Shown: piece by piece, positions 1,698-13,328 of the stretch
How positions within the stretch are numbered: position 1 is the stretch's first letter
Layout of the letters: every line of letters begins with the position of its first letter
IMG/VR virus record: IMGVR_UViG_3300036651_002280
Span: 589 to 64,588 of that record
DNA: 64,000 nucleotides
DNA from: a virus
Taxonomy: Duplodnaviria > Caudoviricetes
Reading direction: 5' to 3' (one strand)
The notes under the pieces: model-generated
Seen by the model: the letters and a program-made list of their open reading frames with translations, nothing else
Databases searched by the model: none
What the model was told of the DNA's origin: nothing
Translations under genes and position numbers: made by a program

Positions 1698-1978
1698 GGG
1701 TCGCCGAGATCAGCCGGGCCGAGCGGGCGGTCGCCAACGAGCTGCTGGCCGACGGCGCCGGGAACCGGGAGATCGCCGACCGGCTCGCGCTCAGTGAGGA
1801 CACCGTCAAGAGCCACGTCAAGGAGCTGCTGGCCGCGACCGACTGCGAGACCCGGACCGAGTTCGCCGTCAAGGTGCTCCGCCGCCAGATCCACCTGAGC
1901 GTGGTGCCGCGACCGGGGCGACGCGCGAGGAGGCCATGTGGCGACGCTGTGTGTGCCGAAGCTGGAGCCGCGCGGTAA
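1694..1978 (+). CDS. LuxR-type helix-turn-helix protein
   Basis: GTGA overlap with terS; GAGNREIADRLALSEDTVKSHV is a LuxR/GerE HTH signature. Confidence 0.7.
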   Translation: MRVAEISRAERAVANELLADGAGNREIADRLALSEDTVKSHVKELLAATDCETRTEFAVKVLRRQIHLSVVPRPGRRARRPCGDAVCAEAGAAR

Positions 1979-3656
1979 GGAGTGGCCCTCGCTCGGCCCC
2001 TACGTCGTCGAGTTCCTGACCGGCCACCGGCTGGACGGCACCGAGAGCGACCGCTGGAGCGGCTCGATCTTCGGCCCCGGCTCGCTGAAGGGCCAGCAGT
2101 ACCGGATGGACGCGGAGAAGATCGCCGCGACCCTGCGGGCCTACGAGATCTACCCGCCGGACCACCCGCTGGCCGGTCGCCGCCGGTTCAAGCGCGTCGG
2201 CCTGTCCTGGCGCAAGGGCACGGCGAAGACCGAGTGGGCCGCGCAGATCTGCTACGGCGAGCTGCACGAGGACGGCCCGGTGCGCTTCGCCGGGTGGGAG
2301 ACCACGCTCTCCGGCGACCTGGTGATCGACCCGATCCTCGAAACGCCGGTGCCGAAGTTCCGCCCCGTCAACGACCCCTACATCCCGATGGTCGCCTACA
2401 CCGAGGACCAGGCCGAGGAGCTGGCCTACGGCGCGCTGATGGTGATCGTCGGCGAGGGGCCCGACGCCGACCGCTTCGACGTCGCGCTGGAGCGCATCAT
2501 CCGGCTCAACGACCGCGGCTTCCCGGACGGGAAGGCCGTGGCGCTCTCCGGCTCGCCGAACGCCAACGACGGCGCGCGGACGACGTTCCAGCACTTCGAC
2601 GAGACGCACCGCATGGAGCTTCCGCGGCTGGTCGCGGCGCACGAGACCATGCTCGGCAACATCCCCAAGCGGACCCTGGACGACCCGTGGTCGCTGGAGA
2701 CCACCACGGCCGGTCGGCCGGGCGCCAACAGCGTCGCGGAGGGCACCCACAAGGAAGCCCAGATGATCGCCGACGGCAAGATCGACGATCCCGAGCTGTT
2801 CTACTTCCACCGCGAGGCCAGCGCGCACCACGACCTCTCGAAGCTCGACGGCCGCATCGCCGCGGTCGCCGAGGCCACCGGCCCGGCGGGGGAGTACGGC
2901 CCCGGCCAGTTCCGCGACATCGCCAAGCAGTGGGAACGGCCCAACGCCGACACCAGCTACCTGGAGCGCGTCTGGCTCAACCGCTGGACGCGCTCGGACC
3001 TCAACGCCTACGACGTCGGGGCCTTCAGCAAGCTCGGCAAGCGCCCCAAGCTCACCCGGCGGGCCTTCGTCACCGTCGGCTTCGACGGCGCGCGCTTCAA
3101 GGACGCCACCGGCTTCGTCCTGACCGACATCCAGAGCGGCGTCCAGCAGCCCTACGGCCTGTGGGAGCGGCCGGAGGACGTCGACGACTGGGAAGTGCCC
3201 ATCGACGAGGTCAACGCCGTCTTTGACGAGATCATGGAGCGCTTCGACGTCTGGCAGGTCTACGGCGACCCGCCGCACTACGTCGAGACGATGGCGACCT
3301 GGGCCAGCAAGCACCCCGACCACGTCACCGAGTGGTGGACGAACCGGCGCCGCCCCATGCACGAGGCGGCGAAGGCGTACCAGGAGGCCATCAACACCGG
3401 CGTCCTCGGCCACACCGACGACCCTGACGACCCGGACAACCGCAACCTGATCCGGCACGTCGGCAACGCCGGGCGCTACGACACCAACCTGCTCGACGAG
3501 CAGGGCAAGAAGATCTGGATCCTGACCAAGATCCAGCCGCACCTGAAGTTCGACCTGTGCATGGCCGCCGTGCTGTCCTGGCGGGCCCGGCTCGACGCGC
3601 TCGCCAAGGGCGCCAAGCCCAGCGGCGCCGAGTTCGTCCCCTACCGCATCCGCTGA
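1938..3656 (+). CDS. terL: Terminase large subunit
   Basis: Walker A-like RKGTAKT, Walker B FDETH, TTTAG coupling motif, nuclease GFDG..D and FDLCMA. Confidence 0.92.
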   Translation: MATLCVPKLEPRGKEWPSLGPYVVEFLTGHRLDGTESDRWSGSIFGPGSLKGQQYRMDAEKIAATLRAYEIYPPDHPLAGRRRFKRVGLSWRKGTAKTEWAAQICYGELHEDGPVRFAGWETTLSGDLVIDPILETPVPKFRPVNDPYIPMVAYTEDQAEELAYGALMVIVGEGPDADRFDVALERIIRLNDRGFPDGKAVALSGSPNANDGARTTFQHFDETHRMELPRLVAAHETMLGNIPKRTLDDPWSLETTTAGRPGANSVAEGTHKEAQMIADGKIDDPELFYFHREASAHHDLSKLDGRIAAVAEATGPAGEYGPGQFRDIAKQWERPNADTSYLERVWLNRWTRSDLNAYDVGAFSKLGKRPKLTRRAFVTVGFDGARFKDATGFVLTDIQSGVQQPYGLWERPEDVDDWEVPIDEVNAVFDEIMERFDVWQVYGDPPHYVETMATWASKHPDHVTEWWTNRRRPMHEAAKAYQEAINTGVLGHTDDPDDPDNRNLIRHVGNAGRYDTNLLDEQGKKIWILTKIQPHLKFDLCMAAVLSWRARLDALAKGAKPSGAEFVPYRIR

Positions 3657-3673: not shown

Positions 3674-3892
3674 GTGCACTGGCTGAGTCGCCTCCTCGGC
3701 ATGGACAACCCGAGCGGCCCCGTGTACCTCGCCTGGTCCGGCTGGGTCGGCGACCTGCCGCTGTTCGGCGCTCTCTGGGTCCTCTACCACCGGCACAACT
3801 GCCACGCGCGCCGGTGCCCGCGGATCGCCAAGCACAGCGTCGACGGCACCCCGTACTGCACCCGCCATCACCCGAAGGGGGACCGTCTGTGA
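3674..3892 (+). CDS. Small membrane protein with C-terminal C/H motif
   Basis: GGAGG RBS; hydrophobic segment then HNCH..RC..YC.RHHP. Confidence 0.6.
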   Translation: MHWLSRLLGMDNPSGPVYLAWSGWVGDLPLFGALWVLYHRHNCHARRCPRIAKHSVDGTPYCTRHHPKGDRL

Positions 3893-5583
3893 CCAGCCCC
3901 TCGGATTCCGGCAGCAGCGAGGGCGTCGTCGTTCCCGGCGGCTCCGGGAAGCCCACCGGAATGGAGGCCGAGGTCGAGGTCCCCGACAGCGACGCCTGGT
4001 GGCTGAAGCGGCTGTACGAGCTGCTGACCCAGCAGCGCGTGTACTGCCAGGCGATGCTCGACCGCTTCTACGGCGAGGCCCCGCTGCCCTACGTCAGCGA
4101 CATCCAGCGCGACGCGGTGAAGTGGTTCGTCGGGCAGTCCCGGACCAACTTCGAGCGGCTGATCGTCAACAGCGTGCTCTCCCGGCTGCGGATCAAGGGC
4201 ATCCGCACCGCGGTCGGCGTCGGCGACGAGGGTGACGCCGATGCCTGGAAGATCTGGAAGAACAGCCGCGGCAAGATCTGGGCCCACGAGGCGATGAAGC
4301 TCGCGCTGGCCGCCTCGCGCGCCTACGTGATCGTCGGCAAGGACGCCGACGGCAACCTCCTGGTCACCGCCGAGGACCCGCGGATGGTCTGCGCCATCAC
4401 CGACCCGGAGAACCCCTACCGGGTGCTGGCCGGGATGAAGGTCTACTTCGACTACGTCGACGGCACCGAGAAGACGTTCCTGTACCGGCCCGGCAAGGCC
4501 CCCCGCGTCGCCGTCCGGCGCTCCGGCCAGCCGCCGGTCACCGAGACCTGGTTCCAGCCGCGCGCCTACGAGTGGATCGACGCCAGCCTGGTCGCGCCGG
4601 AGTTCGACGAGAACAGCTACGTCGTCGACACCACCGGCGGCGCCAACTGGCTGGCCGCCCACGACGGCCTCCCGGCGCTGTGCCCGATCGTGCCGCTGGT
4701 CAACGAGGACGGCCTGAGCGAGTTCGAGCCCTTCCTGCCGCTGATCGACCGGATCAACCAGCAGATCCTGCAGCGGATGACGATCGCCACCATCCAGGCG
4801 TTCAAGCAGCGCGCCTTCAAGGGCCTGCCGCAGAAGGACCCGCAGACCGGGAAGGACATCGACTACGACTCGATCTTCGTCGCCGACCCCGGAGCCATCT
4901 GGAACATCCCCGCGTCTGCCGAGATCTGGGAGTCCGGCCAGGTCGACCTCCAGCCGATCCTGCTGGCCATCCGGGACGACGTCAAAGACCTGGCTGCAGT
5001 CTCTGGCACGCCGCTCTACTCGATCTCGCCGGACGTGGCGAACGGCAGCGCGGAAGGTGCCTCACTCCAGCGCGAGCAGATGAGCTTCAAGGTCGAGACC
5101 CGGATGGACAGCTTCGGCATCTCCCTGGAGATGGTCAACGAGCTGATCTTCCGCACCCTCGGCGACACGTCCCGCTCGACGCCGGGCAGCACCGAGATCA
5201 TCTGGGCCCAGCCGGACCGGCCGAGCATGGCCGAGCGCGCCTCGGCCATCGCGCAGACCAGCGGCGTCATCCCCCGCTACCGGCAGCTGACCGACATCTG
5301 GGGCTACTCACCCAGCGAGGCCGACCGCGCGATGAACGAGCTGCGCCAGGACTTCCTGATGGACCTGCAGTTCGCTGCGGCGGCCACGCCGCAGCCGCCG
5401 CAGGCCCCCGGCCACGGCGGTGGGCAGCTCGGCCCGCAGCAGCAGGCGGCCAAGGCCACCGCGCAGTCTCAGCCGAAGATGGTCGGCTCCGAGGGCGCGC
5501 GGCCGCAGATCCAGGGCAACCGCAAGCCCCCGCAGGCCGCCCGGACCTCGCAGAAGCCGAAGTCCCCCGGTGTCGGTTCGTAA
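3889..5583 (+). CDS. Portal protein (SPP1 gp6-like)
   Basis: Follows terL; RTNF..LIV, SEFEP...LIDRIN, QAF.QR, ADPGAIW, NGSAEGA motifs. Confidence 0.9.
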   Translation: MTSPSDSGSSEGVVVPGGSGKPTGMEAEVEVPDSDAWWLKRLYELLTQQRVYCQAMLDRFYGEAPLPYVSDIQRDAVKWFVGQSRTNFERLIVNSVLSRLRIKGIRTAVGVGDEGDADAWKIWKNSRGKIWAHEAMKLALAASRAYVIVGKDADGNLLVTAEDPRMVCAITDPENPYRVLAGMKVYFDYVDGTEKTFLYRPGKAPRVAVRRSGQPPVTETWFQPRAYEWIDASLVAPEFDENSYVVDTTGGANWLAAHDGLPALCPIVPLVNEDGLSEFEPFLPLIDRINQQILQRMTIATIQAFKQRAFKGLPQKDPQTGKDIDYDSIFVADPGAIWNIPASAEIWESGQVDLQPILLAIRDDVKDLAAVSGTPLYSISPDVANGSAEGASLQREQMSFKVETRMDSFGISLEMVNELIFRTLGDTSRSTPGSTEIIWAQPDRPSMAERASAIAQTSGVIPRYRQLTDIWGYSPSEADRAMNELRQDFLMDLQFAAAATPQPPQAPGHGGGQLGPQQQAAKATAQSQPKMVGSEGARPQIQGNRKPPQAARTSQKPKSPGVGS

Positions 5584-6880
5584 GGCACACCTCGCCCGCC
5601 AGGCCGCCGTCTACGCGGCCGGGCTGCCCACCTTCCTGCGGCGCAACCCGACCTTCGGCAAGCTCGCCGCGAACATCGGCGCCATCCCCCAGGGGTTCGG
5701 CTACGGCGGCCTGGAGGCGGCCCTGGCCATCGCCAGCGGCCAGCAGCAGCAGCAGCAGTCACTGGTCGCCATGGCGGGCGTGCCCAGCAACCTCACCGAG
5801 CTGGTCGCGCTGCTGGAGATCCAGTCGCAGCTGCAGCAGCAGTCGGTCACCCAGGCGCAGGTGATCACCGTCCAGGCGGTCTACCAGTTCCAGAGTTGGT
5901 ATGACAGCGAGCTGATCCAGAACTGGGCGCAGCAGCTGGCCCCGAAGGTCGACGCGCTCGCCCACGCCATCGCCTCGCAGACCGACGCCTACATCGCCTC
6001 CATGGTCAACTGGGCCAACGACCTGAAGACCAAGCCCGGCGAGTTTCACAACAGGTACATGCGGACCGAGGGCACCGTGGAGACCGGCGACAAGCTCCGC
6101 GAGGGCAACACCACCCACGCCGGGGTCTACGGCCGCATCGCCGACGTCTACCGCTGGCAGCAGCACCGCCACGACCAGCACGCGATCAAGATCGCCACCG
6201 ATCCGAACCCCGCGCCCCCGGCCCTGCAGAGCCCGCTGGACGCCGCGCTGGCCCGCGCGCACGACATCGCCAGCACCGACATCCAGCTGGCCGTCCGCAA
6301 GCAGGCCATGCACAGCCTGCGCGGCGCGGAGCGGCGGGGCCTGATCATCGGCTACCGCCGGGTGTTGCACCCCGAGTTCGACCGCACCGGCGTCTGCGGG
6401 CTGTGTGTGGCCGCGTCGACCAAGATCTACAAGACCAGCCACCTGATGCCGCTACACCAGGACTGCCACTGCACGCCGTTCCCGGTCGTCGAGGGTCACG
6501 ACCCCGGCGCGTTGATCAACGACCACGACCTGACCCAGCTCTACGACCTGGCGGGCGGCACCGATCGCGCCGGGCTGGAGCGCACCCACTTCTCGATCGT
6601 CCAGCACGGGGAGAACGGCCCGTGGCTGATCCCCACCGGCGCCGCGCACCGCACGCCGGGCATGGTCAAGAAGGCCACGGCGCCGCGGCCGCGCAGCGCC
6701 GACAGCGAGGCCCGCAAGCGCCGCCAGCTCACCACGCTGCGCGACAGCTTGGCGCGCTCGCTGCAGCGCGTCGACGACCAGCTGAAGCCCGACGCTCCCG
6801 ACAAGTGGACCGAGTACCGCGAGACGCTGGCCGACCGCATCGCCAGCCTGGACCGCCAGCTGAAGGGAGGGTCGCTGTGA
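5570..6880 (+). CDS. MuF-like minor head / capsid maturation protein
   Basis: After portal; GYRRVLHPE..CGLC..AS...PLH..CHC MuF-type motif; no C-terminal toxin domain. Confidence 0.75.
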   Translation: MSVRKAHLARQAAVYAAGLPTFLRRNPTFGKLAANIGAIPQGFGYGGLEAALAIASGQQQQQQSLVAMAGVPSNLTELVALLEIQSQLQQQSVTQAQVITVQAVYQFQSWYDSELIQNWAQQLAPKVDALAHAIASQTDAYIASMVNWANDLKTKPGEFHNRYMRTEGTVETGDKLREGNTTHAGVYGRIADVYRWQQHRHDQHAIKIATDPNPAPPALQSPLDAALARAHDIASTDIQLAVRKQAMHSLRGAERRGLIIGYRRVLHPEFDRTGVCGLCVAASTKIYKTSHLMPLHQDCHCTPFPVVEGHDPGALINDHDLTQLYDLAGGTDRAGLERTHFSIVQHGENGPWLIPTGAAHRTPGMVKKATAPRPRSADSEARKRRQLTTLRDSLARSLQRVDDQLKPDAPDKWTEYRETLADRIASLDRQLKGGSL

Positions 6881-7164
6881 CTGCCCCCGGCAACTTCACC
6901 TCGATCACCTCCCGCGGCGACGCGCAGGCGCTGATGCCCGAGCAGGTCTCCAACGCCGCGCGCACCGCCGAGTCCCGTCGCTCGGCTGCTGGCCGCGCCA
7001 CGGTCGGCCCCGACGGCAAGGTGCACGTCGACGGCAAGCACGTCGGCAAGGTCTTCAAGAGCGGCCGCGCCTGGCGGGCCCGGACCAAGTCCGGCCAGCT
7101 GCCGGGGATGCACGGAACGAAGCAGGAGGCGGTCGGCGCGCTGGTCCTGCAGCACGGGGCCTGA
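6877..7164 (+). CDS. Small basic protein bearing a copy of the major capsid N-terminal segment
   Basis: GTGA overlap and GGAGG RBS; SRGDAQALMPEQVSN vs capsid SRGDAQALMPEEVSN. Confidence 0.7.
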   Translation: MTAPGNFTSITSRGDAQALMPEQVSNAARTAESRRSAAGRATVGPDGKVHVDGKHVGKVFKSGRAWRARTKSGQLPGMHGTKQEAVGALVLQHGA

Positions 7165-7167
7165 CCG

Positions 7168-7908
7168 GTGGCCAAGCCGCCGGTCGTGCATCACTGGAAG
7201 CACGGCTGGATCCCTCTGGATGCCACCGCCATGGCCGAGAAGCGCCGCGGGCGGAGCGTCGCCGGAGCGGTCACCCTGGAGCACCCGAAGGCCAGTCTGC
7301 CCGGACCCCCGCCGAAGCACACCCCCCTGAACGAGCTGCCGCGCATCCAGGGCGCCCACTCGCTGCGCGAGGACGTCGTGCGGAGCAACCCCAGCTTCAA
7401 CCAGGGCGACGAGTTCAAGGTCAACTGCGTGCACTGCGTGAACACCTGGGAACTGCGCCGCCGCGGCTACGACGTCGTCGCCACGCCCCTCCCGGCCGAC
7501 CTGTTCCGGCAGAACGGACGTAGCGCCCAGGATGCGCTGAACACCTCCTGGCGCACCCCGTCCGGCGAACGCCGTCGGTTCACCGACAGCAGCAGGGTGG
7601 GCGTCTACAACCAGATCGCGGCCTGGCCGGACGGCGCCCGCGGCTGGGTCAGCGTGAACTGGAAGGCGGGCGGCGCCCACATCTTCGGCGTCGAGCGTCA
7701 CGGCGGCCAGACCACCTTCGTCGACCCCCAGCGCGGCAAGGTCAACGTCGACGAGTACTTCGATCGCGCGACCCCGATCATCAGGCTGGTCCGCACCGAC
7801 GACCTGACCCCCGAGAACCGCGTCACCCAGTTCTCCGCCGAGGCCACCCCGGAGCAGCGTCTCATCGCCGCGCGCAACGCCTCCAGCTCCAGTTTCAAGG
7901 GATACTGA
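7168..7908 (+). CDS. HWKHGWIPLD-tagged papain-fold toxin (Tox-PL, deamidase-like)
   Basis: NCVHC..ELRRRGYDV, AHIF, FVDPQ give a Cys-His-Asp triad. Confidence 0.8.
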   Translation: MAKPPVVHHWKHGWIPLDATAMAEKRRGRSVAGAVTLEHPKASLPGPPPKHTPLNELPRIQGAHSLREDVVRSNPSFNQGDEFKVNCVHCVNTWELRRRGYDVVATPLPADLFRQNGRSAQDALNTSWRTPSGERRRFTDSSRVGVYNQIAAWPDGARGWVSVNWKAGGAHIFGVERHGGQTTFVDPQRGKVNVDEYFDRATPIIRLVRTDDLTPENRVTQFSAEATPEQRLIAARNASSSSFKGY

Positions 7909-7910
7909 GC

Positions 7911-8198
7911 GTGATGACGGTCACCTTCGACGACGCCCGGCGCCGGGTGCAGATCCACCTGGCCGCGAAGTGGAGCGACCAGCTCGGCACCCTGACCACA
8001 CTGCCCGAGGGCTTCGAGGACGCCACCCACTGGCGCGTGGTCGCCGGTGCCCGCGAGGCGCTGGTCGACGGCGACGACGACTACCAGCTGATGGACGCCC
8101 CGGCGCTGCTGGTCGACAAGCGCACCGGCGCGGTCACCGAGGTGTCGGTGCTCGACCACCTCGACCAGCTCGACCGGATGCGGCCGACCGTCAGCTGA
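7911..8198 (+). CDS. Putative immunity protein (Imm35/YrhB-like)
   Basis: Directly after toxin; T.D.A.., E...HW.V, P.LLVDKRTG.V pattern. Confidence 0.65.
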   Translation: MMTVTFDDARRRVQIHLAAKWSDQLGTLTTLPEGFEDATHWRVVAGAREALVDGDDDYQLMDAPALLVDKRTGAVTEVSVLDHLDQLDRMRPTVS

Positions 8199-8259
8199 TC
8201 GTCAGGCGAGGTTGACCCGAGCCGACGTCTGCCCAGTGATGACCGATTCTCTCGGTCAA

Positions 8260-8286
8260 GGAATGATGACGTCGGACACTCGGTTG
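8260..8286 (+). promoter_or_regulatory. SigR/SigH-type ECF promoter
   Basis: GGAAT-N18-GTTG in an intergenic gap; 21 bp identical to the leftward promoter at 40740-40760. Confidence 0.6.
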
Positions 8287-8300
8287 AAGGTGGTGTGACC

Positions 8301-8843
8301 ATGACCACCCGCCACCACTACCACTGGAAGCACGGCTGGATCCCGCTCGACCACGCCGCTGCGATGAAGAAGGCCCACGGCGACAAGACCGCCGCGGCCA
8401 AGGCGCTCGCCCAGGCGAACGCCTCCGACCCCAAGACCGCCGACAAGCTGATCCACTCGATCAAGGCCAACGGCGGCTTCACCTACGACCCGACCAAGGG
8501 CCGACTGCTGCAGGTCGGCAAGGACAAGGGCTTCGCCGTCGCGGTGCCCGGCACTGAGCAGCTGGTCGGCAACGGCGAGGTCTCCCGCGAGGACTTCGCC
8601 AAGGGCGTCGCCCAGGTCGTCAAGCAGCACGCCGACAAGCTGGCCAACGGCCACGTCCTGGGCGGCTGGTACTCCGAGGACCGCAACGCCTACATGGTCG
8701 AGCTGACCCAGATCATGCCCGCCCATGACCGGGCCGGGGCCATCGCCGAGGGCATGCGGCGCAACCAGGAAGGCATCTTCGACCTCTCGACCGGGGACTA
8801 CATTCCCACCGGAGGTACCGGAGATGCCCTCAACACCCCATGA
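8301..8843 (+). CDS. HWKHGWIPLD-tagged protein of unknown function
   Basis: Tag at N-terminus; C-terminal domain GGFT..GFAV..GGWY..E..QEGIFDL..TGGTG. Confidence 0.8.
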   Translation: MTTRHHYHWKHGWIPLDHAAAMKKAHGDKTAAAKALAQANASDPKTADKLIHSIKANGGFTYDPTKGRLLQVGKDKGFAVAVPGTEQLVGNGEVSREDFAKGVAQVVKQHADKLANGHVLGGWYSEDRNAYMVELTQIMPAHDRAGAIAEGMRRNQEGIFDLSTGDYIPTGGTGDALNTP

Positions 8844-9000
8844 CCCGCCCCGCAAGCACTACGTCCGCCCCGCCAAGGGGCAGAAGCCGGACGACCAGGA
8901 AGCCCTCTCGATGGGCTACGCCCTGTTCGACCACATCGCCAGCGAGCAGGCCAAGGCCGCTCGACAGGGCGAGGGAGACGGAGACCAGCCGGGGAGGTAG
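8824..9000 (+). CDS. Small partner protein (58 aa), possible inhibitor/immunity
   Basis: GGAGG RBS, overlaps 3' end of tagged gene. Confidence 0.5.
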   Translation: MPSTPHDPPRKHYVRPAKGQKPDDQEALSMGYALFDHIASEQAKAARQGEGDGDQPGR

Positions 9001-9004
9001 CTCC

Positions 9005-10165
9005 ATGGCAGCCGTGCCGAAGGTGTACCACTGGAAGCACGGCTGGATCCCGCTGGACGCCTACGCCAAGCTGGAGCAGTCCAAGCGCGGCTCGGCCGCC
9101 AAGCTCGCCGAGAACCCGATCGCCTCCCGGCTGGCCGCCCCCGTGCGCGGCCTCAACGACCTCTCCCCGGCGCTGCAGACCAAGATCAACGCCAAGATGT
9201 CCGCGCTGACCGGCATGCCCGAGCCCAAGCTCGCCGCCAAGGTCCAGGACAACCTCGTCCGCCTCTACGGCACCGGCGACAAGAAGGCGTTGACCTGGTA
9301 CGCCGACGAGGGCGCCGACATCGGCCGCCGAGCCGCCGCCCTGCGGGCCCAGTACGGCATCAAGCTCACGCAGGAGCAGCTGACCGGCATGGTCGCCGTC
9401 ACCTCCGCGCACAAGCGCTGGCTGGAGAACAAGGACTTCGCCGAGGCCATCGCCCGCAAGCTCGCCGAGGACAAGCCGTTCCCGGTCAGCCAGGAGATGA
9501 TCAACGACTACAACACCTTCGTCGGCAAGCGCCGCAACGGGCTGCTGAAGGTCCACCCCGAGCTGAAGCCGGGCACCTACAAGCCTAGCGAGCTGCCCAC
9601 CGACTTCGCCGTCTCGAAGACGCCGGGCATGCCGCGGCACCTGAATACCGACTACGTCGTCAACGCCGCGCGGATCTACCGCAACGAGGCCACGCTCGAC
9701 CAGGTGGTCGGCGGCCCCAAGCAGCGCAGCTTCGTCAACAACCTGATGAGCCCCGCGGACCCCCGTTCGGTCACCGTCGACACCTGGCACTACCGTGCCG
9801 CCATGCAGGGCATCCCGCTGACCTACGACTTCGGCCCGAAGGGGCAGAAGAAGACCTACAGCTACACGCTGGAGCAGTGGGCCGACCGCGAGCTGGCGCG
9901 CAACGACGGCCGGGCGGCCATGTTCGGCTACGACCCGAGCAAGCCCCCCACCGAGAAGCACAACCTGAAGGCCATCTTCAAGGCCACGAAGGACCCCCAG
10001 GACTTCTTCCAGAGCGGGCCCGCCGCGGTCGCCGACAAGTACGACGGCAGCTACGGCACCTACCCCTGGTTCGTGAAGCAGACCCAGGCCGCCGCGAGCA
10101 AGCTCAGCGTCTCGCCGTCGAGCATGCAGGCCGTCGCCTGGTACTCCGTGGGCGGCGGGCTGTGA
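9005..10165 (+). CDS. HWKHGWIPLD-tagged protein, possible HhH/DNA-glycosylase-like fold
   Basis: GGAGG RBS; WY, A.TS...W..N, GPK..SF.NN, VTVDTW, QAVAW motifs; Lys-rich. Confidence 0.7.
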   Translation: MAAVPKVYHWKHGWIPLDAYAKLEQSKRGSAAKLAENPIASRLAAPVRGLNDLSPALQTKINAKMSALTGMPEPKLAAKVQDNLVRLYGTGDKKALTWYADEGADIGRRAAALRAQYGIKLTQEQLTGMVAVTSAHKRWLENKDFAEAIARKLAEDKPFPVSQEMINDYNTFVGKRRNGLLKVHPELKPGTYKPSELPTDFAVSKTPGMPRHLNTDYVVNAARIYRNEATLDQVVGGPKQRSFVNNLMSPADPRSVTVDTWHYRAAMQGIPLTYDFGPKGQKKTYSYTLEQWADRELARNDGRAAMFGYDPSKPPTEKHNLKAIFKATKDPQDFFQSGPAAVADKYDGSYGTYPWFVKQTQAAASKLSVSPSSMQAVAWYSVGGGL

Positions 10166-10365
10166 TGGCCGCCTGGAAGCCCCTGGACCCCTACCGGGGC
10201 AAGGAGATCGAGCCGCTGCACGGCCAGGAGCTGATCGACCTGGTCGACTTCTACAAGCGCACCGCCGACCAGAACGGCGAGCCCCACGACCCCGAGTGGG
10301 ACCGCTGGCTGGCCGAGGACGCCGAGGGTCCCGACGACGAACCGGACGACGCCCCGAGCGCGTAG
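10165..10365 (+). CDS. Small acidic partner protein (66 aa), possible immunity
   Basis: TGATG coupling to upstream gene; D/E-rich. Confidence 0.6.
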   Translation: MAAWKPLDPYRGKEIEPLHGQELIDLVDFYKRTADQNGEPHDPEWDRWLAEDAEGPDDEPDDAPSA

Positions 10366-10465
10366 CGCCCCCAGCTTCACACTCAGCTTCACACCCCCAC
10401 CCCAGCACCCCCGAGGCCCAAGAGCCACGGGGGTGCTGTCGTCTCACAGGGAAGGCGGTGGGGGA

Positions 10466-11167
10466 GTGGCGGGCTTCAATCCGAATCAGCCGCGCGTGCC
10501 CGCCGGGCAGGGGGGCGGCGGCGAGTGGGGATCACCCCGTAGCGCCTCCGCCGCGGCGGCCCAGAAGAACCAGGCCGCGGTCGCGGCGTACCAGCACCTG
10601 CTGAAGCTGCCACCGGGCCAGCGGGCGGCATACGTGAAGGGTCTGTCGACCTCGCAGCTGGAGCACCTGACCGCGGTCGCCTACAGCTTCCACACCAGCA
10701 ACTCCAACGTCGTCGGGGCGCGCTACGCGCTGTCGAAGGAGATGACCCACCGGGGCATCCCGATCACGAAGTACGGCGCACTCGGCGGCGGCCTGGCGGC
10801 CAAGCACGCCCCGGCCAAGCACGCCCCGGCCAAGCATCAGACGGCGGCAGCCCACCAGGCGGCGGCAGCCAAGAAGGCCGCCGCCCAGAAGCTGGCACAC
10901 CAGAAGAAGGTAGCGAGCCTGCAGAAGAAGGAAGCGAGCCTGCAGAGCCGGAGCACGAAGACGCAGGCGGCGCTGAACAAGCGCATCGCGGCCATCGACG
11001 CCCAGGAGAAGAAGGCGCGAGCCGCCAAGAACCAGAAGACCGCCACCGGGCGCCTGAAGGCGCTCGACGCCAGGGAGCTGAAGGCCCGGATGGCGGCCGC
11101 CCACAAGGAAGCCGCGCTGAGCGCTCAGGAGCGCAGCGTGCAAGCCCAGCTGAAAGCCCTGGGCTGA
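10466..11167 (+). CDS. Lys/Ala-rich histone-like protein with N-terminal FNPNQPRVPAG..GGEW motif
   Basis: AKHAP repeats, AAKK runs, coiled-coil C-terminus. Confidence 0.7.
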   Translation: MAGFNPNQPRVPAGQGGGGEWGSPRSASAAAAQKNQAAVAAYQHLLKLPPGQRAAYVKGLSTSQLEHLTAVAYSFHTSNSNVVGARYALSKEMTHRGIPITKYGALGGGLAAKHAPAKHAPAKHQTAAAHQAAAAKKAAAQKLAHQKKVASLQKKEASLQSRSTKTQAALNKRIAAIDAQEKKARAAKNQKTATGRLKALDARELKARMAAAHKEAALSAQERSVQAQLKALG

Positions 11168-11260
11168 CACAGACGCCCCGGCCCGCCGCCGGGGATGGCG
11201 GGACGACCGCGCTACAGGTCGGTGGCCGACGGGCCGTAAACGGATCGAAGGGCGCAAGCC

Positions 11261-11851
11261 ATGACCATGCCCACAGGAGACTCGGGCGACAACGGCCAGA
11301 CCCCCGAGGGCGACGAGCCCGAAGGCACTGGCCAGCAGGGCGGCCAGCAGTCGGAGTGGAAGCCTCCGGCCTCCCAGGAGGAGCTGGACCGAATTATCAC
11401 CGACCGCCTGAAGCGGGAGACGCGGAAGTTCCGCGACTACGACTCGCTGAAGGCCAAGGCGGAGCAGTACGACAGTCTCGCCGCTTCGGTCCAGACGGAC
11501 CAGGAGCGGGCCATCGCCGAGGCCCAGGAGCAGGCGTTCAACGCCGCGATGGGGTCCGTCGTGCCGCGCCTCGTGCGGGCCGAGTTCAAGGCTGCCGCAC
11601 TCGGCAAGTTGACCGGCGAGCAGCTGGAGACGCTGCTCGAAGACGTCGACCTGACCAAGTACGTCGACGACGACGGCGAGCCGGACGTCGACCGCATCAA
11701 GCGGAAGGTCGAGGCGCTCGCGCCGAGGACTCCGCCTCCCAGCTTCGGGCAGGGCCAGCGCCAGCAGGTCCAGGCCCCGAAGTCCATGAACGACCTGATC
11801 AGGGGCCTGGCCACCAAGGGCACCGTGACCCTCAGCGGCCGCGACCTCTGA
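11261..11851 (+). CDS. Capsid scaffolding protein
   Basis: Acidic N-terminus, SQEELDRII..RL.RE..KF.DYD.LK.KA; just before capsid. Confidence 0.85.
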   Translation: MTMPTGDSGDNGQTPEGDEPEGTGQQGGQQSEWKPPASQEELDRIITDRLKRETRKFRDYDSLKAKAEQYDSLAASVQTDQERAIAEAQEQAFNAAMGSVVPRLVRAEFKAAALGKLTGEQLETLLEDVDLTKYVDDDGEPDVDRIKRKVEALAPRTPPPSFGQGQRQQVQAPKSMNDLIRGLATKGTVTLSGRDL

Positions 11852-11919
11852 TCTTCGGCAGCGCACCCGGCATGGCGCGGGGAGCTGCTTCTCCCAACCC
11901 CTGAAAGAGAGGTACAGCC

Positions 11920-12870
11920 ATGCCGAACAACAACATCATCAGCCGGGGCGATGCCCAGGCCCTGATGCCGGAGGAGGTCTCGAACGAGCTGCTGCGCACC
12001 GTGGTCAGCCAGTCCGCGGTCCTCAGCCGGTTCCGCCGGATCCCCGTGGGACGCCAGCAGGTCCGCCTGCCCGTCCTGTCCGCCCTCCCGACCGCCTACT
12101 TCGTCGCCGGTGACACCGGTCTGAAGCAGACGACCGAGATGGCCTGGGCGAACAAGTTCCTCAACATCGAGGAGATCGCCGTCATCGTCCCGATCCCGGA
12201 CAACGTGATCGCCGACATGGAGGCGAACATCTGGGACGAGGCCATGCCGCTGCTCACCCAGGCGTTCGGCCGGTGCCTGGACAACGCGGTGTTCTTCGGG
12301 GTCGGCGCGCCCGCGTCCTACCCGACCAACATCGCGGCTGCGGCCGCTGCGGCGGGCAACATCGTCGTCGAGGGCGCCAACGACGCGGCTGCGGCCGGTG
12401 GGTACTTCAACGACGTCGACGCCCTGCTGGCCGCCGTCGAGGCCGACGGCTACGAGGTCAACGGCTGGGTCGCGGCGACCTCGTTCAAGTCCAAGCTGCG
12501 CTCCGCGCGCAACACGCTCGGTGACCGGCTCGACCAGAACCGGGTCAACGGGCCGCTGACCGAGCTGGACGGGTACCCGATCAGCTACCCGATGCGGGGC
12601 ATGTTCCCGACGTCCTCCGGCGGCGCTCGCGTCTTCGGTGGCGACTTCGACCAGTTCGTGGTCGGTGTCCGGCAGGACATCTCGATGAAGGTCAGCAACG
12701 AGGCTGTCATCCAGGACGCTGCCGGGAACATCGTCTACAACTCGTTCCAGCAGGACCTGACCTTCCTCCGGCTGACCTTCCGGGTCGGCTGGCAGGTGGC
12801 GAACACGATCAACTACGACAACCCGGACGACAGCACCCGCTACCCCGTGGGCGCTCTCACCCTGGCCTGA
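11920..12870 (+). CDS. Major capsid protein (HK97 fold)
   Basis: L.PEEVS, P.AYFV, EEIAVIVPI, GDF, N.FQQD...LR...RVG. Confidence 0.92.
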   Translation: MPNNNIISRGDAQALMPEEVSNELLRTVVSQSAVLSRFRRIPVGRQQVRLPVLSALPTAYFVAGDTGLKQTTEMAWANKFLNIEEIAVIVPIPDNVIADMEANIWDEAMPLLTQAFGRCLDNAVFFGVGAPASYPTNIAAAAAAAGNIVVEGANDAAAAGGYFNDVDALLAAVEADGYEVNGWVAATSFKSKLRSARNTLGDRLDQNRVNGPLTELDGYPISYPMRGMFPTSSGGARVFGGDFDQFVVGVRQDISMKVSNEAVIQDAAGNIVYNSFQQDLTFLRLTFRVGWQVANTINYDNPDDSTRYPVGALTLA

Positions 12871-12935
12871 TCCTTCGGGATCTCCTTCTCCGGCCCGCCA
12901 CCGGACCCACCTGACACGGAAAGGAACTGATCACC

Positions 12936-13328
12936 ATGACCACTACGGGTCATTCCACGGCTGGTCGGTCGGTGGCGAGCTTCGGCACCACCTCCGGCTC
13001 GAAGGCCGTCACCGCACCCGCGGGGACGTTCAACGACCCCGACGACGTCGACGTCGTCGTGACCGCCACCGGCGTCCCGGCGGGCACGACCATCGCGTCG
13101 GTCGAGTCGGACACCGCGGCCACCCTGTCGGCCAACGCCACGGCGACCGGCACGGTCACGGCCACCCTCGGTGCCGAGCTGGCCAGCGAGGTCGGCTTCA
13201 CCGGCTGGGTGCCCACCACGGGTGCCCAGCAGGGGGACTGGACGGTCGCGGCGGCCAACGCCGGGACTCTCCCGCCCGAGCACCTGGCCGACAGCAACAC
13301 CCGCGTCACCCAGTACGTCGAGCACTGA
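12936..13328 (+). CDS. Putative capsid decoration protein
   Basis: Thr/Ala-rich beta protein (GVPAGTTI, ATLSANATA) after capsid. Confidence 0.55.
   Translation: MTTTGHSTAGRSVASFGTTSGSKAVTAPAGTFNDPDDVDVVVTATGVPAGTTIASVESDTAATLSANATATGTVTATLGAELASEVGFTGWVPTTGAQQGDWTVAAANAGTLPPEHLADSNTRVTQYVEH

Follow-up and report, generated by a model that had tools for sequence, protein, structure and literature searches.

A small phage protein that carries a copy of the major capsid protein's N-terminal arm

The ORF at 6877..7164 (+) of the phage DNA analysed here encodes a protein of 95 amino acids (P0001) that is modular, being made of a flexible copy of the conserved arm segment of the phage's own major capsid protein and of a basic globular domain. 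The window, meaning the whole stretch of 64,000 nucleotides under analysis, makes up almost all of a linear virus record of 64,588 bases, for which CheckV gives a completeness of 83%. Its G+C content is high, and near-identical DNA is found in soil-metagenome runs. Among seven such runs there is none of RNA type, a blank that speaks neither for nor against expression of the small ORF. Contigs from four runs are identical to the window in short pieces only, and they hold no informative variants of the arm.

Residues 12-26 of the small protein (SRGDAQALMPEQVSN; 6910-6954, +) are identical to capsid residues 8-22 (SRGDAQALMPEEVSN; 11941-11985, +) at 14 of 15 positions (SRGDAQALMPE[Q/E]VSN), just as a preliminary description of this DNA had reported. 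When the two proteins are compared by BLASTP, the match widens to 24/49 identities (E 8e-9), and a profile comparison of the two families by hhalign covers 20 columns (75% identity, probability 95.6%, E 1.2e-8). The same description had proposed that the peptide is conserved here rather than the DNA, and the codons agree: 36 of the 45 nucleotides are identical, with seven codons differing synonymously and one non-synonymously, so that seven of the 14 identical residues are written with a different codon. Such synonymous divergence means that the copy does not come from a recent duplication or gene conversion. A pattern search in the six frames of the window retrieves the motif from two ORFs only, the small ORF and the capsid gene, and these are also the only two places where it occurs in the whole 64,588-base record. 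Joints within single contigs, leading from about 6918-6956 to about 11942-12074, were considered as signs of a rearrangement and rejected, being compatible with cross-mapping between the two similar arms or with the capsid genes of relatives.

The 15-residue match stands, but 15 residues are not the full extent of the copied stretch, as the resemblance goes right back to the N-terminus. In the small protein, PGNFTSIT (residues 4-11) lines up with MxYNNxTS, the consensus start of the capsid clade, and the whole N-terminal arm has therefore been copied, beyond the core 15-mer. From BLASTP, codon comparison and hhalign together, the arm in the small ORF covers residues 4-28 (6886..6960, +), the original being residues 1-24 of the capsid protein. 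In the AlphaFold2 model of the small protein, pLDDT is below 50 at residues 1-3, 5-12 and 14-20, and a helix begins at P21/E22. In that of the capsid protein, residues 1-13 are disordered and helix alpha-1 lies at 18-31. Both models thus have a flexible, low-confidence N-terminus and then a helix that sets out from the Pro-Glu of the motif, and as modeled the small protein has the layout of an HK97 capsid N-arm, an extended segment followed by the start of a helix. The full HK97 fold, with its spine-helix P-domain, A-domain and E-loop, is absent from the small protein, and a search of it for PF05065 gives no match even at E up to 10. Weak second HMM stretches and a BLASTP hit at E 3.7 hinted that the basic domain might in its turn be related to the capsid A-domain. 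This was discarded, as the hhalign alignment is confined to the arm and the secondary structures predicted for the two do not agree.

The major capsid protein (316 aa; 11920..12870, +; PF05065, E 1.7e-24) has the HK97 fold and belongs to a Bridgette/Bobi-like clade. It is 60% identical to the capsid protein of Arthrobacter phage Bridgette (PDB 8ECI, E 2.2e-121) and distantly related to that of Staphylococcus phage 80alpha (6B0X, E 1.8e-13), its residues 12-295 aligning with 80alpha residues 35-303. Capsid proteins of the clade begin with the consensus MxYNNxTSRxDAQALMPEEVS, the start being eight residues ahead of the motif Arg. Across nine aligned relatives (43-63% identity), no stretch of invariant columns in the capsid protein is longer than D11-V20. 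R9, D11, A12, L15, P17, E18 and V20 are invariant in 50 capsids and also in 69 arms, and position 19 is Glu or Asp in 69/69 of these arms. The position of Gln13 is freer (Q 34, A 21, E 5, S 5, G 3 across the 69 arms). By its HMM register with 80alpha, the copied piece would correspond to the beta-strand of the N-arm plus the N-cap or start of alpha-1. In the 80alpha procapsid, the N-arm strand is added to the sheet under the P-domain, and in the mature capsid it lies under the E-loop of the neighbouring subunit (PMC5744158, PMC5644958). The C-terminal helix-and-hook of the 80alpha scaffold packs on the hydrophobic face of alpha-1 and on the A/P cleft (PMC5644958, PMC5744158), and the scaffold's main contact is the capsid N-arm (PMC5644958). 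In six Bobi-like capsids studied by cryo-EM, the capsid protein is reported as the only component, joined by gp7 in Bridgette (10.1101/2022.09.09.507160). None of those six phages encodes the arm-copy protein.

The small gene is part of a head-morphogenesis module at the left end of the window. The small terminase (1212-1697, PF25673) and large terminase (1938-3656) are followed by the portal protein (3814..5583, +; PF05133, E 5.1e-15; phrog_104, E 5.7e-83), whose start is uncertain, and by a MuF-like minor head protein (5570..6880, +; phrog_1522, E 1e-40), for which the start at 5570 was chosen and is not certain. PHROGs labels phrog_1522 as 'head maturation protease', and the Cys/His motif region of the MuF-like protein aligns with Bridgette gp4, annotated as 'MuF-like minor capsid protein'. 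Between the small ORF and the scaffold gene there is a block of six ORFs on the same strand (7168..11167, +). It holds a protein with a glutamine-deamidase-type toxin domain (7168-7908, +), an immunity protein (7911-8198, +), an ORF at 8295-8843 (+), an ORF with DUF7178 (9005-10165, +) and two more ORFs (about 10167-10365 and 10433-11167, both +). Three genes of the block have in common an N-terminal tag, HW[KR]HGWIPLD, which is different from the capsid arm. The acidic scaffolding protein (196 aa; 11261..11851, +) matches ten PHROG scaffolding families (best E 8.5e-16); the capsid gene comes next, and then a gene for a 130-aa protein (12936-13328). A Pfam scan of 15 head-module ORFs finds no prohead protease family, and in PHROGs nothing points to one beyond the name given to the family that the MuF-like protein matches.

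By its coding character, the ORF at 6877-7164 looks like a real gene. Its GC content at the three codon positions (0.71/0.56/0.94) is like that of the capsid gene (0.64/0.44/0.95), and a Shine-Dalgarno sequence, GGGAGG (6865-6870, +), stands six bases 5' of the GTG. This start codon (6877-6879, +) overlaps the TGA stop of the MuF-like gene (6878-6880) as GTGA. The same start/stop arrangement, as ATGA, is seen in the viral contig L001, the one relative at the DNA level (76% identical), against whose copy the small ORF has a dN/dS of about 0.52. Judging from this arrangement, the small protein is translationally coupled to the MuF-like gene, both in the window and in L001. The ORF is nevertheless separate from MuF, with another frame and with a Shine-Dalgarno and start of its own, and the Cys/His motif region of MuF / SPP1 gp7-type proteins is absent from it. 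A frameshift fusion to MuF was considered and dismissed, as there is no slippery heptamer before the stop, and a Shine-Dalgarno and a start codon are present. The search for longer or fused forms of the small protein found none, which is weak evidence.

The part beyond the arm had been called a small basic beta domain. This is roughly right, for the sheet and the basic charge are there, and helices are also present in the AlphaFold2 model. As delimited by that model and by charge count, the domain spans about residues 40-95 (6994..7161, +) and combines a beta-sheet with a C-terminal helix. The model of the whole protein has a helix at 21-38, strands at 41-43, 48-51, 54-62 and 65-70, and a second helix at 82-94, with a pLDDT of about 90 over residues 41-90. 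The net charge is +9 in residues 29-95 and the pI of the protein is 11.3; throughout the family, the domain has a net charge of +8 to +10 in 8/8 members, with pI values of 10.6-11.8. Foldseek does not find the fold in the PDB (best E 0.26), and VIA-align against 48,161 chains gives a best Z of 4.2, below the level that clears noise. Among its many tied weak rows, all below the tool's meaningful level, are AP2/ERF domains (7wq5, Z 3.8, rmsd 2.4, 45 aligned; 2gcc, Z 3.5, rmsd 1.9, 42 aligned) and several dsRBDs (Z 2.8-3.6). Matches in BFVD, at E 3e-3 and above, are to uncharacterised phage proteins of about 60 residues. In the Atlas, feature scores are at most 0.77, and the structural matches, to unnamed or DUF2969 clusters of ~61 aa, lie below its bar. 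Pfam, PHROGs and NCBIfam return nothing meaningful for the small protein at E up to 10. From its charge, the basic domain may bind nucleic acids.

The small-protein family is rare. A word-indexed search of 5.8 billion proteins yields four close relatives of 86-95 aa, and an exhaustive profile search of 1.84 billion representatives yields three more distant ones, 52-59% identical. This makes seven homologues of 86-96 aa in all, none with a name or a Pfam domain. Two other candidates (P0010 and P0011) are regarded as spurious, being long repetitive proteins that match short pieces. The preliminary description had made its reading depend on the homologues keeping the segment, and on this count it survives, since the arm is kept in 7/7 of those found. 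Variants of the arm among them read RSN, DAAALT, DASPMM and DAAALA. In 8/8 members the arm is at the extreme N-terminus, and at the positions that are invariant in capsids the small proteins have R in 8/8, D in 7/8, A in 8/8, L in 7/8, P in 8/8, E in 8/8 and V in 7/8, one member having Asn at Asp11. At the Gln13 position they have Q, A or S, a spread similar to that of the capsids. This spread, together with the kept invariant positions, suggests that the arm of the small proteins is under the same structural constraint as the capsid arm. At capsid position 19, on the other hand, they have Gln (6), Arg (1) or Ala (1), with an acidic residue in 0/8. The copy is therefore no perfect stand-in for the capsid arm, and the loss is no less compatible with a competitor or a decoy than with a docking arm.

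The searches in genomes give the same picture of rarity. Among 50,697 phage records there is no match, either by megablast of 5400-13000 or by tblastn of the small protein, and two contig scans for relatives in genomes and prophages found none. It is absent from the six-frame ORFs of 80 viral loci that were chosen for a related capsid gene, at least 34 of which have 5 kb or more upstream of that gene; the capsid start was recognised by pattern in 58/80. Its absence from all 80 means that the small protein is dispensable for this type of capsid. When a capsid-arm profile is run over all 94 sources, it matches capsid frames and just two other ORFs, the small ORF of the window (E 7.4e-10) and that of L001 (E 1.5e-5). 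Among 93 related loci, these two proteins alone have the arm copy outside a capsid gene. A metagenome scan seeded with the small-protein alignment gave 11 loci, all capsid N-termini (11/11) and no small protein, and a search for short proteins with the capsid's first 40 residues gave one candidate, a 123-aa fragment of PF05065. Scans of viral contigs for the distant homologues P0007-P0009 found no contig. L001 ends before its capsid gene, and the cognate comparison is that of one pair, in the window: the 20-residue arm of the small protein scores 15/20 against its own capsid, its best match, tied with two foreign capsids of 69. The Gly of RGD, which occurs in only 2/69 capsid arms, is common to the small protein of the window and to its own capsid. 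For this one pair, it is suggestive but weak evidence that the arm tracks its own capsid.

The role that we favour, tentatively and as a possibility more than a probability, is that of an accessory head protein whose arm docks where the capsid N-arm docks and holds the basic domain against the packaged DNA. That it binds, with which partner, where it lies in the virion and whether it touches DNA are points that we infer. The first 26 residues or so would be a docking peptide on the capsid shell, and the site would be one that normally takes the capsid N-arm strand, either in the P-domain sheet or beneath the E-loop of a neighbouring subunit. This would place the basic domain at the inner face of the shell, in reach of the packaged DNA. 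Candidate sites would be those without a capsid arm, for instance around the portal vertex, which lacks the five subunits of a penton. As the capsid-invariant residues are retained in the arm, it would be expected to meet the same surface as the capsid arm. These kept residues, together with the precedent of phage P74-26 discussed below, are the reason why a docked accessory head protein is favoured. By homology, the surface in question is probably that of the capsid protein, at the P-domain sheet or the E-loop of a neighbour, and not that of the scaffold. The preliminary description had offered the HK97 lattice, the scaffold and the portal as possible partners, and among these the scaffold appears less likely, because in 80alpha it packs on the A/P cleft and on the hydrophobic side of alpha-1, and not on the strand that is copied here. 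That hydrophobic side has not been preserved in the small protein. A prediction of the complex of capsid and small protein scored 0.00 against a mark of 0.32 with controls absent, and it is evidence neither way.

Several observations support docking: the gene's position in the head module and its coupling to MuF, the fact that the copied stretch contains the most conserved run of the capsid protein and that the copy is kept at the peptide level, the flexible N-terminus and following helix predicted for both proteins, and the charge of +8 to +10 maintained in every member. Others speak against it. Any free arm would face competition from that of the capsid protein, tethered in cis, no acidic residue is kept at position 19, one member has Asn in place of Asp11, and the family is tiny.

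The same data can be read in other ways. The arm could be an address tag that binds the scaffold, the portal or the MuF-like protein, by which a basic internal or ejection protein is loaded into the procapsid. Its partners would recognise the capsid N-terminus during nucleation, and the protein would later leave with the DNA in the manner of the T4 internal proteins. The gene lies directly 3' of the portal and MuF genes and 5' of likely cargo genes, three of which have the other N-terminal tag, HW[KR]HGWIPLD; the scaffold is acidic and the small protein basic; and the capsid N-arm is the scaffold's main contact in 80alpha (PMC5644958). The 80alpha scaffold, however, touches alpha-1 and the A/P cleft rather than the preceding strand (PMC5644958), the helix that follows the motif in the small protein is polar, Ala-rich and basic (AARTAESRRSAAGR) instead of hydrophobic, and, the PHROG name of the MuF-like family aside, Pfam and PHROGs reveal no prohead protease among the module ORFs that would remove a tag. 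We consider loading by such a tag rather unlikely. A free arm might also act as an assembly modulator, competing for the cis or trans site of the capsid N-arm or for the scaffold, and so delaying or steering assembly or maturation. SaPI1 CpmB, which shares the scaffold's helix-and-hook, offers a precedent for partly mimicking an assembly partner (PMC5644958), of which the present case would be the mirror image, and with no acidic residue at position 19 (0/8 vs 69/69) the arm could be a non-productive competitor. The gene is nonetheless the phage's own and not a satellite's, closely related capsids assemble without the small protein, and the conserved basic domain would be left without a role, all of which makes modulation improbable.

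The arm could be a decoy, imitating a part of the capsid that is sensed by a host defence system, a protease or a chaperone, and titrating that factor. Major capsid proteins are the trigger of some defence systems in bacteria. The neighbouring toxin domain and immunity gene are of the conflict type and would suit this. Position in the head module and coupling to MuF nevertheless indicate a structural role, and no counter-defence family is matched in Pfam, PHROGs or NCBIfam, so that we give the decoy very little weight. Just as little is given to a remnant, in which an old partial duplication of the 5' part of the capsid gene became fused to another ORF and left a functionless arm, or in which the ORF is unexpressed. 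The rarity of the family would fit, as would the dN/dS of about 0.5 to the one DNA-level relative, which indicates moderate constraint. Yet the arm is kept at capsid-invariant positions in 8/8 members, down to 52% identity, the synonymous sites have diverged, GC3 is 0.94, and the Shine-Dalgarno and the start/stop overlap are conserved. Finally, one protease or modifying enzyme could act on both N-termini through a shared signal, for which 80alpha is a precedent (PMC5744158). The copied segment, though, aligns with the retained 80alpha N-arm, from residue 35 onward, and not with the 13-14-residue leader that is removed, and, leaving aside the name of phrog_1522, no protease gene is recognised in the module by Pfam or PHROGs. 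Such processing has the slimmest chance of all.

Should the arm of this putative accessory head protein dock, accessory proteins can reuse the capsid's own arm, and a natural, transferable tag of about 25 residues for HK97-fold capsids would be at hand, with which cargo could be loaded into actinophage heads. Two further questions would be touched, namely by what means minor and internal head proteins reach their positions, of which little is understood except in T4 and P22, and how the portal vertex is stabilised where a penton is missing. A broader view, which we regard as speculative and on the whole unlikely, is that in this phage lineage the capsid N-arm is a portable address into the HK97 shell, used beside the HW[KR]HGWIPLD tag of toxin-type cargo, and that the head is a delivery compartment which can be programmed by two or more address codes. 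Whatever protein bears the arm would then be woven into the shell or carried inside it, much as with the cargo-loading peptides of encapsulins, except that the address would be derived from the shell protein itself. If the arm does not dock, the systematic change of Glu to Gln, Arg or Ala at position 19 would speak for a role as competitor or decoy, something new for a phage's own gene.

Known systems offer partial parallels. In the portal-vertex protein PVP and in Dec of Thermus phage P74-26, the strand of an N-arm joins the beta-sheets of the HK97-fold capsid (PMC12407722). PVP does so at the portal vertex, and its arm is in contact with DNA as well (PMC12407722). The small protein resembles them in combining a globular domain with an N-arm, and it may dock likewise. 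It differs in that the arms of PVP and Dec are not described as copies of the capsid's own arm (PMC12407722). SaPI1 CpmB copies the C-terminal capsid-binding motif of the scaffold, and so enters the procapsid (PMC5644958). It too is a small protein with a copy of an assembly partner's short binding motif, but the motif is the scaffold's C-terminal helix-and-hook and the gene a satellite's, whereas here the motif is the capsid N-arm and the gene the phage's own. The capsid, the scaffold and the ribosomal protein L27 of the 80alpha system have in common an N-terminal motif for cleavage by Prp (PMC5744158). That motif is a leader cleaved off by a host protease, in contrast to the present one, which aligns with an arm retained in the structure. 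The alignment lies past the 80alpha cleavage site, and the arm contains no Phe-Ala (F-A), unlike a leader of the Prp type.

The capsid targeting sequence of T4 and the cargo-loading peptides of encapsulins are short, sit at protein termini and direct cargo into HK97-fold shells. They bind the scaffold core or an inner pocket of the shell and are not known to resemble the shell protein. In T4, the prohead protease cuts the tag off, and in the present module no enzyme of this kind is recognised apart from the PHROG name of the MuF-like family. In the literature searched (titles and abstracts), a copy of the capsid arm on a separate protein is not described, and we know of no separate phage protein with a sequence copy of the capsid's own N-arm. 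Bridgette has the same order of genes, with TerS, TerL, portal, MuF-like, scaffold, capsid and a gp7-type decoration protein, and its capsid has the same arm motif as that of the window, but there MuF is followed directly by scaffold and capsid, without the small arm-copy gene and without the cargo block. Terminal peptides that dock on HK97-type shells or address proteins to them are thus already known, and what appears to be new here is that the capsid's own N-arm is copied onto a separate protein.

Three ORFs lying 3' of the small gene that bears a copy of the capsid arm (6877-7164, 95 aa) have another N-terminal sequence in common. The motif HW[KR]HGWIPLD is placed about 9-12 residues after the start in the ORFs at 7168-7908, 8295-8843 and 9005-10165. 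Two ORFs of L001, the viral contig that is the sole DNA-level relative of the small gene, also begin with it (6413-7168 and 7557-8108), and a scan of all loci besides the window and L001 found it in none (0/92). HW[KR]HGWIPLD looks like a second N-terminal tag, carried by unrelated domains within the one block between the MuF-like and scaffold genes.

As for the arm itself, single soil-metagenome contigs aligned to the window with 80% likeness “jump” from one arm copy to the other (about 6918-6956 and about 11942-12074). The simplest explanation is that the two arms, being similar, cross-map, or that capsid genes of relatives do. In two metagenome loci with related capsid genes (L005, 919-1527; L011, 4944-6059), the capsid frame is open for about 55 residues 5' of the arm motif, and this stretch includes an in-frame ATG (MPRITIPEGLLAF...). 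The capsid protein of that lineage may be extended at its N-terminus by this stretch, or the frame may simply be open.

Elsewhere in the head module, the 244-aa Ala/Lys-rich low-complexity ORF directly 5' of the scaffold gene (10433-11167) has FNPNQPRVPAGQGGGGEW in its N-terminus, and family scans of Pfam and PHROGs gave no match for it. The ORF at 12936-13328 is a homologue of gp7 of Arthrobacter phage Bridgette (45% identity, E 2e-18), a decoration protein whose dimers are bound around the pentons, according to a cryo-EM preprint (10.1101/2022.09.09.507160). The small terminase ORF (1212-1697; PF25673, E 8.3e-29 in Pfam) has as its best PHROG phrog_226, labelled “minor tail protein”, probably a PHROGs mislabel because the ORF sits 5' of the large terminase. 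The “head maturation protease” label of phrog_1522, matched by the MuF-like ORF (ending at 6880), is likewise probably mistaken.

The head module also holds a toxin-immunity pair, made up of an ORF with a papain-fold glutamine-deamidase toxin domain (7168-7908; PF15644, E 1.8e-10) and an immunity protein ORF (7911-8198; phrog_3585, E 4e-22, with an Imm35 match under Pfam's cut-off). The pair is similar to the polymorphic toxins that accompany MuF in temperate phages (PMC5576092), but unlike those it is separate from MuF.
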